Source: Dictyostelium discoideum (taxonomy: Eukaryota). From it: a stretch of 64,000 nucleotides of DNA. The stretch spans positions 3,680,001 through 3,744,000 of the forward strand of contig CM000152.2 of NCBI GenBank assembly GCA_000004695.1. The letters run 5' to 3'. Under the pieces are notes generated by a model. That model was not told the origin of the DNA. It saw only the letters and a program-made list of their open reading frames with translations, and made no database searches. This document shows, in pieces, positions 15,301-16,686 of the stretch. Position 1 is the first letter of the stretch. Each line of letters begins with the position of its first letter. Both the position numbers and the translations under genes were made by a program.

Positions 15301-16500
15301 AATAAAAAAGTTAATTTTTCAAAATTTTACCATCCAAAAACACCCCCAATTTACCATCAGCTAGTTGTTCATTTGCTGTTCATTTCATATCACGCAAAAA
15401 AAACAATTTAAAAAACAATAAATAATTTAATTCCCGCTATTTTTTGCGGATTTGCGGAAATGATTTTTTTTAATTTATAAAAAAATTTGATTTTTTTTAT
15501 TTAAGACAGATCTTATCAGATTTATAAAATGAGAAAATATAATAGATATCTACTATTTTTGGCATTAAACAAAGATTTCTGAATATTCAGAAATAGACAG
15601 CGAAACTATCTAATATTGTAAGTGTAACCACGGAGATCGCCACGTGGATTTGCGGCACTTCCTGCTGCTGGTCCCCAGCCATATTGGCCGTTTATTGGAC
15701 GTTGTGAGAGATTTTGGCCTGGTTGTACGATTCCGCCTGATGTCATTTGCTGGGAATAAGAATATATGAGATTTAATTAATAAATATACATGATATGATT
15801 GATAAAAATAGAACAAATTTTAAATTTTTAAAATTGTACACATACATTAAAGTATAATAATATAATTTGTTAAAAATAATTTGAAATGTTTTTTTTGAAA
15901 AAATTTTTTTGTTAATGTTTTATCAACATTTTTTAAATTAAAAAATAAAAAAAATAAAATTAAAAAATAAAAAAAATAAAAAATAAATTTAATTAAATTC
16001 CAACATTTTTTAGGGGGTACCCCTCTTTTTTTTATTTAAATATTAATTTTCATTTTTATTATTATTATTATTATTATTATTAAAATTATTATTTTTTTTA
16101 GGGGGTACCCTCTTTTTTTTTAGGGGGGTACCCCTCTTTTTTTTTTATTTTTTTTATTTTTTTTATTTTTTTTTTTATTTTTTATTTTTCTTTTTTTTTT
16201 TTTTTTTTTTTTTCATTTTTTTTTTTATGTAACGAAGACACAAAAATAAGTTAATATTAAATAAGTGAACTAAGACACTAATTATAGTTGACCCACATTT
16301 AAATAATAATAATAATAATAATAATTCTATTAACTCGAGTTTATAATTATAAATAATATAAATACTAAAAATAATTATATAAACAATAATGAATACCATA
16401 ATTAAAATATAAACCATCAATTTTTTTTTTTTTTTTTTTTTTTTAATTATTTTTTTCAAATATATAGATATTGATCAACAAGCCAACGATACTGAAAGAG

Positions 16501-16686
16501 CTCTAAAACACCGATTTGTTGATCACCAAATAAATTAGATGCAGTCGCAGGTGAAAATGGTGTAAGATTCCTCTTTTTATCAGCAAAACCATTACGTGAA
16601 CCAATCGTCCAACATGGTCCATTCGTTATGAATACACAAAAAGAAATTCAACAAGCTTTCTTTGATTACCAAATGGGTAGATATTA
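16501..16686 (+). pseudogene. Pirin 3' fragment (C-terminal ~53 codons, sense on + strand) fused to a 27-bp pirin piece in opposite orientation; rearrangement breakpoint
   Basis: 16528-16686 encodes KLDAVAGENGVRFLFLSAKPLREPIVQHGPFVMNTQKEIQQAFFDYQMGRY*. 16501-16527 (ctctaaaacaccgatttgttgatcacc) is identical to copy-2 plus-strand 11601-11627, i.e. antisense of GDQQIGVLE, which lies 15 codons upstream in the intact gene. The two pieces join at shared cacc microhomology. Confidence 0.7.

Follow-up and report, generated by a model that had tools for sequence, protein, structure and literature searches.

A probable deletion scar with a templated insert at a truncated inverted pirin gene of Dictyostelium discoideum AX4

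RESULTS

Organization of the pirin/ependymin-like locus in AX4

The window, by which we mean the whole stretch of 64,000 nucleotides that was analysed, is an extremely AT-rich part of chromosome 3 of Dictyostelium discoideum AX4, identified as such by its proteins. Its layout was derived from self-comparison and from open reading frames, and positions refer to it unless another sequence is named. For comparison we used an independent, chromosome-level assembly, ACTFIT (GCA_054883475.1, CM142509.1), and two wild D. discoideum, ACTFIR (GCA_054859385.1, L002) and ACTFIW (GCA_054859355.1, L004 and L005; merged coordinates are those of L004 joined to reverse-complemented L005). The locus contains pirin (P) and ependymin-like (X) genes in both orientations, with the following features.

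8197–9226, minus strand: P1, pirin copy 1, two exons; the AX4 pirin XP_641148.1 is also found on the ACTFIT chromosome
10296–11048, plus strand: X1, ependymin-like gene (PF25544), DDB_G0280727
11400–12400, minus strand: P2, pirin copy 2, two exons
13324–14079, plus strand: X2, ependymin-like gene, DDB_G0280733, forming the left arm of an inverted repeat with Xinv
14256–16500, plus strand: spacer 'U' between the arms, with a degenerate U-gene fragment (14440–14643) and about 1.8 kb absent from the wild strains
16459–16502, plus strand: remnant of the last exon of the U gene, ending ...GATACTGAAAGAGCT; 43/44 identical to L002 15493–15536 and to ACTFIW merged 16533–16576
16524–16687, plus strand: Pc(+), inverted pirin 3' fragment, 163 nt of exon 2 including the stop codon, placed by alignment to copies 1 and 2
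16688–16976, no strand assigned: spacer between pirin(+) and Xinv, of the same sequence type as the X1-to-P2 spacer
16977–17729, minus strand: Xinv, inverted ependymin-like gene, DDB_G0280737, with stop codons in the window and intact (250 aa) in ACTFIT
17730–18342, minus strand: upstream region of Xinv, where the inverted arm stops on its outer side; conserved right flank from about 18523

On the side of X2, a gene also present on CM142509.1 of ACTFIT, the homology between tandem units stops near 14238. Of the two tandem units, unit 2 is the more similar to the inverted arm across gene X and the region upstream of it. This arm carries the X-to-pirin spacer that is today found only after X1, which indicates that a pirin gene once stood after an X2-like gene.

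The spacer U showed several features of its own. About 1.8 kb of it in AX4 (14643–16459) had no counterpart in either wild strain. This part of the spacer may be the remnant of a mobile element. An inverted repeat of 76% identity was seen at 14742–14951 and 15263–15078, three AGGGGGTACCCCT palindromes lay near 16012, 16100 and 16121, and a block at 15600–15760 appeared GC-rich on inspection and gave no Rfam or tRNA match. A tRNA or known RNA that could explain the spacer or mark a retroelement target was rejected, since ARAGORN on the window, Rfam at gathering thresholds and Rfam at E <= 1 on 15300–16300 all returned nothing. The degenerate coding fragment at 14440–14643 (...ITLVDTPGFADSSGLDKDRQHIK...) matched at about 89% of DNA positions within the span of a 1060-aa D. 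citrinum gene, in the opposite orientation, and also matched the spacer of ACTFIR (L002 15049–15258); an ORF of 49 aa at 14411–14557, overlapping the first part of this fragment, had no Pfam match. At 14199–14285 the left arm ends in X-to-pirin spacer near 14238 and is followed by DNA resembling the ACTFIW spacer (merged 15913–16000, 85%). AX4 is therefore also without the pirin(-) that stands before U in the wild strains, a second deletion beside the spacer.

Two truncated genes meet at the junction

From the CACC at 16524 to the stop codon at 16685–16687 the plus strand carries the final 55 codons of pirin in sense orientation, (T)PNKLDAVAGENG...QMGRY and stop, with 2 substitutions relative to copies 1 and 2. 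An in-frame TGA (16520–16522) stands just upstream of the fragment. The protein encoded by the fragment matched Pirin_C when used as a query. In contrast to the intact pirin copies of 295 aa, 16524–16687 holds no complete two-domain ORF (PF02678 Pirin with PF05726 Pirin_C), the N-terminal cupin domain being absent. On the left side of the junction, the U exon of AX4 diverges from the wild strains exactly after GAGCT. The exon in ACTFIR (L002) is in an open frame, ...QYIDIDQQANDTERASNLKN...NQVY and stop, whose stop codon lies 138 nt beyond the AX4 cut, while the frame in AX4 now ends ...DTERALKHRFVDHQIN and stop. The rest of the U coding sequence past GAGCT was absent from the whole window, and a Pfam search with the pieces of the U gene found no family. 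The U fragment (16459–16502) and the pirin fragment (16524–16687) are probably pseudogene stumps left by one deletion, with both genes dead.

A gene model encoding an 89-aa 'Pirin_C' protein runs across the junction in the ACTFIT annotation. The model could be reconstructed only with two introns, and its last exon begins 12 nt past the junction; it is almost certainly spurious, an artefact of prediction. Assigning the orthology of the pirin fragment by sequence was attempted and abandoned: the AAT variant at 16531 and the alignment of the spacer gave mixed signals, because the variants are common to several copies (concerted evolution). Its orthology rests on position and flanks.

Structure of the junction at base level

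Between the two stumps lies a short segment in the opposite orientation. The 27 nucleotides at 16501–16527 (CTCTAAAACACCGATTTGTTGATCACC) were identical in all 27 positions to 11601–11627 on the same strand, within P2, and represent the antisense orientation of pirin, the reverse complement of the GDQQIGVLE codons. Copy 1 (8398–8424) matched at 25/27 and has CCAATATG where the 27-mer and copy 2 have CCGATTTG. The whole 64 kb contained no further match with up to three mismatches; chance matches numbered 0 in 100 shuffles and none were expected. Compared with the reverse complement of pirin(+) in the wild strains, the 27-mer was identical at 26/27 positions in ACTFIW (merged 19832–19858) and at 25/27 in ACTFIR. 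Among the 9 copies sampled, only P2 of AX4 shared the G allele (CCGATTTG) that the 27-mer has at 16513.

The AX4 junction was then set against the U gene and the complete pirin(+) in a three-way comparison, in which square brackets enclose the bases shared by neighbouring segments.

AX4 junction: ...GATACTGAAAGAG[CT]CTAAAACACCGATTTGTTGAT[CACC]AAATAAATTAG...
U gene: ...GATACTGAAAGAGCT/TCCAAT...
pirin(+): ...GATAATGAAATAA[CACC]AAATAAATTAG...
16501–16502, no strand: left microhomology CT, in which the U exon (GAGCT) and the start of the 27-mer overlap
16524–16527, no strand: right microhomology CACC, in which the last bases of the 27-mer and the first of the retained pirin(+) coincide
11601–11627, plus strand: candidate source of the insert, within tandem pirin copy 2, the sole sampled copy with the G allele (CCGATTTG)
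k-mers of the AX4 state: GAAAGAGCTCTAAAACACCG and TTGTTGATCACCAAATAAATTAG
k-mers of the intact state: GAAAGAGCTTCCAAT for U; GAAATAACACCAAA or GAAATTACACCAAA for pirin

The segment foreign to both flanks is 21 nt long (16503–16523) and reaches 27 nt once the shared ends are counted. In the intact pirin gene, the source of the 27-mer and the CACC stand 37 nt (AATAAAGATAGAGTTACAATTAATGATAATGAAATTA) apart. The insert is the reverse complement of pirin(+) sequence lying 37 nt before the right breakpoint. When random joins of local coding sequence were simulated, a microhomology of at least 2 nt arose with a probability of 0.20 and one of at least 4 nt with a probability of 0.028; the chance of finding CT on the left and CACC on the right jointly was about 0.006. 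The 2 nt on the left are by themselves weak evidence.

These data agree in most points with the first-pass annotation of this DNA as far as the letters of the junction are concerned. It had described the 27-mer as identical to 11601–11627, antisense to GDQQIGVLE and specific to copy 2, and all of this held (27/27, against 25/27 for copy 1). Its concern that the segment might recur by chance was allayed by the search at up to three mismatches in the 64 kb and by the 100 shuffles, and its placing of the following sense codons 15 codons further downstream fits the gap of 37 nt before CACC in the intact gene. The CACC that it had noted in both partners was evident in the base-level comparison, which added the CT at the left end. 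It had the sense strand of pirin begin at 16528; the sense orientation was borne out, and the homology starts already at 16524, with the CACC. The 'small deletion' that it had proposed has to be abandoned: the 37 nt measure how far the insert's template lies from the right-hand limit of a deletion that spans about 3.3 kb, described below.

Two further structures were considered at the junction. A 10-nt inverted match was seen between TGATCAACAA at 16472–16481, in the U exon, and TTGTTGATCA at 16516–16525, in the 27-mer. As a third templated piece it was rejected, the wild strains having TGACCAACAA at the same place of the U exon; TGATCAACAA is the ancestral U sequence with one substitution, and the inverted match is probably coincidental. 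A hairpin joining GGTG and CACC was also rejected, as the sense strand of pirin folds weakly (-4.3 kcal/mol, z = 0.31 against shuffles). Secondary structure is neither needed nor supported for bringing GGTG and CACC together.

The junction is reproduced in an independent assembly

The first-pass annotation had asked whether the junction might be an assembly chimera. The locus is repetitive, the inverted gene X of AX4 carries suspicious substitutions, and ACTFIT shows one SNP with its alleles on the opposite arms, all of which would speak for such an error in the reference sequence. The segment retrieved from ACTFIT was collinear with 3291–19070 of the window at 99.59% identity, differing over these 15.8 kb by homopolymer lengths and 7 substitutions only, and it was identical base for base across 16440–16600, junction included. 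Since exactly the same junction occurs in an independent assembly with other homopolymer lengths and with those 7 substitutions, we regard a chimera as hardly credible.

Some of the differences between the two assemblies fall within the cassettes. At the same codon site of X2 (13791) and Xinv (17262), GGTACAGT[T/C]CAATG, X2 reads T and Xinv reads C in the window, but in ACTFIT X2 reads C and Xinv reads T; such a reciprocal swap could reflect exchange between the arms, gene conversion between them or mis-assigned reads in one assembly. Two further reference substitutions in Xinv, at 17399 and 17556, include a TGA stop, and ACTFIT agrees with X1 and X2 at both; they may be reference errors or recent mutations. 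Upstream of P1, three substitutions between window and ACTFIT within 28 nt (9446–9473) suggest a small conversion tract or a local sequencing error.

Wild strains carry a complete inverted pirin gene

In both ACTFIR and ACTFIW the order of genes was actin, zf-MIZ, P(-), X(+), X(+), P(-), U(+), X(-), P(+) encoding 295 aa, X(-), and then the right-flank genes that AX4 also has. Collinearity with ACTFIW extended over 16524–18342 of AX4 (merged 19896–21717) and again over 18523–19639 (merged 21791–22881), and the full-length pirin(+) matching AX4 from 16524 onward was found from merged 19896 in ACTFIW and from L002 18816 in ACTFIR. On this collinearity, the AX4 pirin fragment is the positional counterpart of the complete inverted pirin. 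The DNA between the two breakpoints, which takes in the rest of U, an X(-) gene and the 5' portion of pirin(+), measured 3319 nt in ACTFIW (merged 16577–19895) and 3279 nt in ACTFIR (L002 15537–18815), and is absent in AX4. We take the AX4 state to be derived by deletion, because a gene that has been cut short cannot grow back, and here two unrelated genes stop at a single point; the ancestral state is read here from haplotypes that are about 10% diverged in non-coding DNA.

The other parts of the locus differ between strains too. The cassettes are arranged P X P X, U, pirin fragment, X in AX4 and P X X P, U, X P X in ACTFIR and ACTFIW. The left arm is thus P X P X in AX4 as against P X X P in the wild strains, and the spacer U is very different between strains; for these reasons the junction may be part of a larger, complex event and not a simple deletion. 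The locus is a structurally polymorphic inverted repeat, linked probably to an old inversion.

The age of the inverted arm could be bounded with more distant relatives. In D. cf. discoideum ACTFIY (L010) the series actin, zf-MIZ, P, X, P ran straight into the right-flank region, which was in the opposite orientation, and both the inverted arm and U were absent; D. citrinum L009 had a single P-X unit without an inverted arm. Absence from the close outgroup L010 points to the arm being a feature of D. discoideum. L010 and L009 inform solely on the lack of an inverted arm. Three loci were rejected as outgroups because they are not syntenic: in D. citrinum L003 and D. cf. discoideum L007 an ependymin-like paralogue stands in another gene context, and in D. 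dimigraforme L006 a pirin does. Judged from these comparisons, the inverted arm is common to three D. discoideum lineages and older than the AX4 junction.

The comparison with orthologous loci that the first-pass annotation had suggested therefore tells against its central reading, in which the junction was the breakpoint and origin of the inverted copy: ACTFIR and ACTFIW have the complete pirin(+) of 295 aa and the same right flank, and they have no such junction. Of the fold-back or template-switch signature that it had seen, the microhomology-mediated template switch stands and the fold-back does not, as the U exon lies on the left. Nor can a copy-2-like donor be assigned to the inverted copy as a whole. 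The allele concerns only the insert of 21–27 nt, and the claim does not follow; the same allele could have been present in the deleted part of the inverted pirin or in a third tandem pirin since lost.

DISCUSSION

Origin of the junction

Relative to the other strains AX4 has a deletion, whose junction holds an insert of templated origin between two microhomologies. In our reading, to which we give a probability of about 0.7, the junction is the scar left when a later deletion of about 3.3 kb was repaired in the laboratory lineage of AX4; the deletion cut a pre-existing inverted pirin and its neighbour U. By its sequence, the junction bears the signature of a microhomology-mediated template switch or of synthesis-dependent microhomology end joining, each of which is documented to leave scars of this sort (PMC5453318; PMC5068794): it combines loss of sequence, an insert copied from nearby or paralogous DNA, and microhomology at each switch, as in templated-insertion deletions. 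In MMBIR a nascent strand leaves its template, copies a short complementary or paralogous stretch and returns, leaving an inverted copy with microhomology at the switch points.

The starting locus would have been the old inverted repeat, with tandem pirin(-)/X(+) units on the left, the spacer with U, and inverted X(-), pirin(+) and X(-) on the right. From this the AX4 lineage would have lost about 3.3 kb, namely the last part of U, an inverted X gene and, counted from its 5' end, two-thirds of the inverted pirin. A 3' end halted at ...GAAAGAGCT in the U exon may have paired through CT/AG with the sense strand of pirin at the end of the GDQQIGVLE codons, and about 25 nt ending in ...GATCACC would then have been copied. 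After its release, the end could have annealed once more by CACC/GGTG, now to the inverted pirin at a point 37 nt further downstream, and from there normal synthesis, or ligation, would have taken over. The expected product is U exon, 21 nt of antisense pirin and the 3' end of pirin(+). We infer the order of these steps from the product, and likewise the choice between a collapsed fork (FoSTeS/MMBIR type) and synthesis-dependent end joining of a double-strand break, and the copy that served as template.

A simple two-ended break with snap-back on the retained flank was rejected, because the strand geometry, worked by hand, cannot yield the order U/A'/C. With it excluded, the template has to be supplied by a paralogue, by the sister chromatid or by the opposite arm of the fork. 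Candidates are P2, a third tandem pirin since lost, and the deleted stretch of pirin(+), read from its complementary strand or its sister copy. P2 matches the insert at 27/27, and neither P2 nor a lost tandem pirin would require a flip to the opposite strand, because these genes are inverted relative to the broken one. If the deleted part of the inverted pirin was the template, a switch to the complementary strand would be required. The G allele mildly favours an ectopic donor, P2 or a lost neighbour, over a template in cis.

The differences in spacer and left arm could also be drawn into one complex replication event with several switches, of the MMBIR/chromoanasynthesis type, that rebuilt the entire middle of the inverted repeat in the AX4 lineage. 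It would also have removed the third tandem pirin left of U, most of U (replaced), X(-) and the 5' part of pirin(+), and the 27-mer would have been copied in passing from the lost third pirin or from P2. Consistent with this, AX4 has no pirin after the last X and the homology of X2 is lost in X-to-pirin spacer near 14238; the AX4 spacer shares only 88–204 nt and 44 nt with those of the wild strains; and the 27-mer is in direct orientation relative to the pirins of the left arm and has the allele of P2. Yet the three differences are equally explicable as separate events that accumulated, the wild strains differ from each other in U, and nothing connects the left boundary at 14238 with the junction at 16501–16527. 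That the junction is the trace of such a single multi-template-switch event in the NC4/AX4 lineage, with P2, 5 kb away, as a transient template, we consider unlikely. If it were true, the locus would offer a natural strain-polymorphic system for the handling of palindrome centres and for templated repair in Dictyostelium.

A fold-back or MMBIR event starting from a break in a copy-2-like pirin and founding the inverted copy at the present junction would account for a flipped 27-mer that meets the sense strand 37 nt downstream via CACC, for the copy-2 allele, and for an inverted arm that, in gene X and upstream of it, resembles unit 2 more than unit 1. Such an origin predicts ...B'A'/C..., with pirin sequence running on leftward, and what lies to the left of the 27-mer is the truncated exon of the unrelated U gene and not a second arm; with the inverted arm and complete pirin(+) of the wild strains existing apart from this junction, we find it very doubtful. 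The shortness of the insert, and a left homology of 2 nt of a kind that arises in 20% of random joins, would also suit classical end joining that captured, in reverse, a free pirin fragment of about 25 nt from break processing, the microhomologies being coincidental. The probabilities of 0.028 for CACC and of about 0.006 for both homologies weigh against capture, as does the exact coincidence of both insert boundaries with the homologies, which is predicted by priming and not by ligation, and we judge it very improbable.

Under the preferred reading of a later deletion with a templated insert, the annotation of the locus changes, 16459–16502 and 16524–16687 becoming the stumps of one deletion. 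The structural polymorphism of this chromosome 3 pirin/ependymin-like locus matters for the use of AX4 as the reference for the region; otherwise it is ordinary structural variation.

Comparison with known systems

Scars of end joining and of template switching have, to our knowledge, been little catalogued in Dictyostelium. The AX4 junction would be a clean natural instance in this organism of a templated-insertion deletion, a class of mutation already known. Like a fold-back inversion, it has copies of one gene in opposite orientation, a microhomology of 4 nt, and a short spacer between the template and the point of rejoining. It differs in that its left side is not the second arm and that the inverted arm exists without the junction in other strains, so that the defining features of a fold-back are missing.

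Templated inserts flanked by 1–4 nt of homology, reverse-complement ones included, are products of polymerase-theta end joining (PMC5068794). The AX4 scar resembles these polymerase-theta/SD-MMEJ delins in that a deletion is sealed by a short insert from near the breakpoint, with 1–4 nt of priming homology at each switch, and its insert of more than 20 nt stands at the upper end of the size range reported there (PMC5068794). Unlike them, it has its template in the deleted sequence or in a paralogue and not in the retained flank, and the deletion is 3.3 kb long (PMC5068794); a simple snap-back in cis does not fit, because the template is not in the retained flank. The PolQ-related genes of Dictyostelium are described as having the polymerase domain alone, with function unexplored (PMC7515707). 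The PolQ-like genes of this organism are DDB_G0282679, DDB_G0277751 and DDB_G0274421.

One study attributes clusters of mutations to template switching in replication (PMC5453318), and another describes the copies made by replication template switches as short and inverted (10.1101/2021.11.26.470150). The AX4 scar is like FoSTeS/MMBIR and short-range switches in its short inverted copy and in the microhomology at its switch points. Short-range template switches usually span tens to hundreds of bases and bring no kilobase deletion, whereas one switch in AX4 would have covered about 3.3 kb, a distance that becomes 5 kb with P2 as donor.
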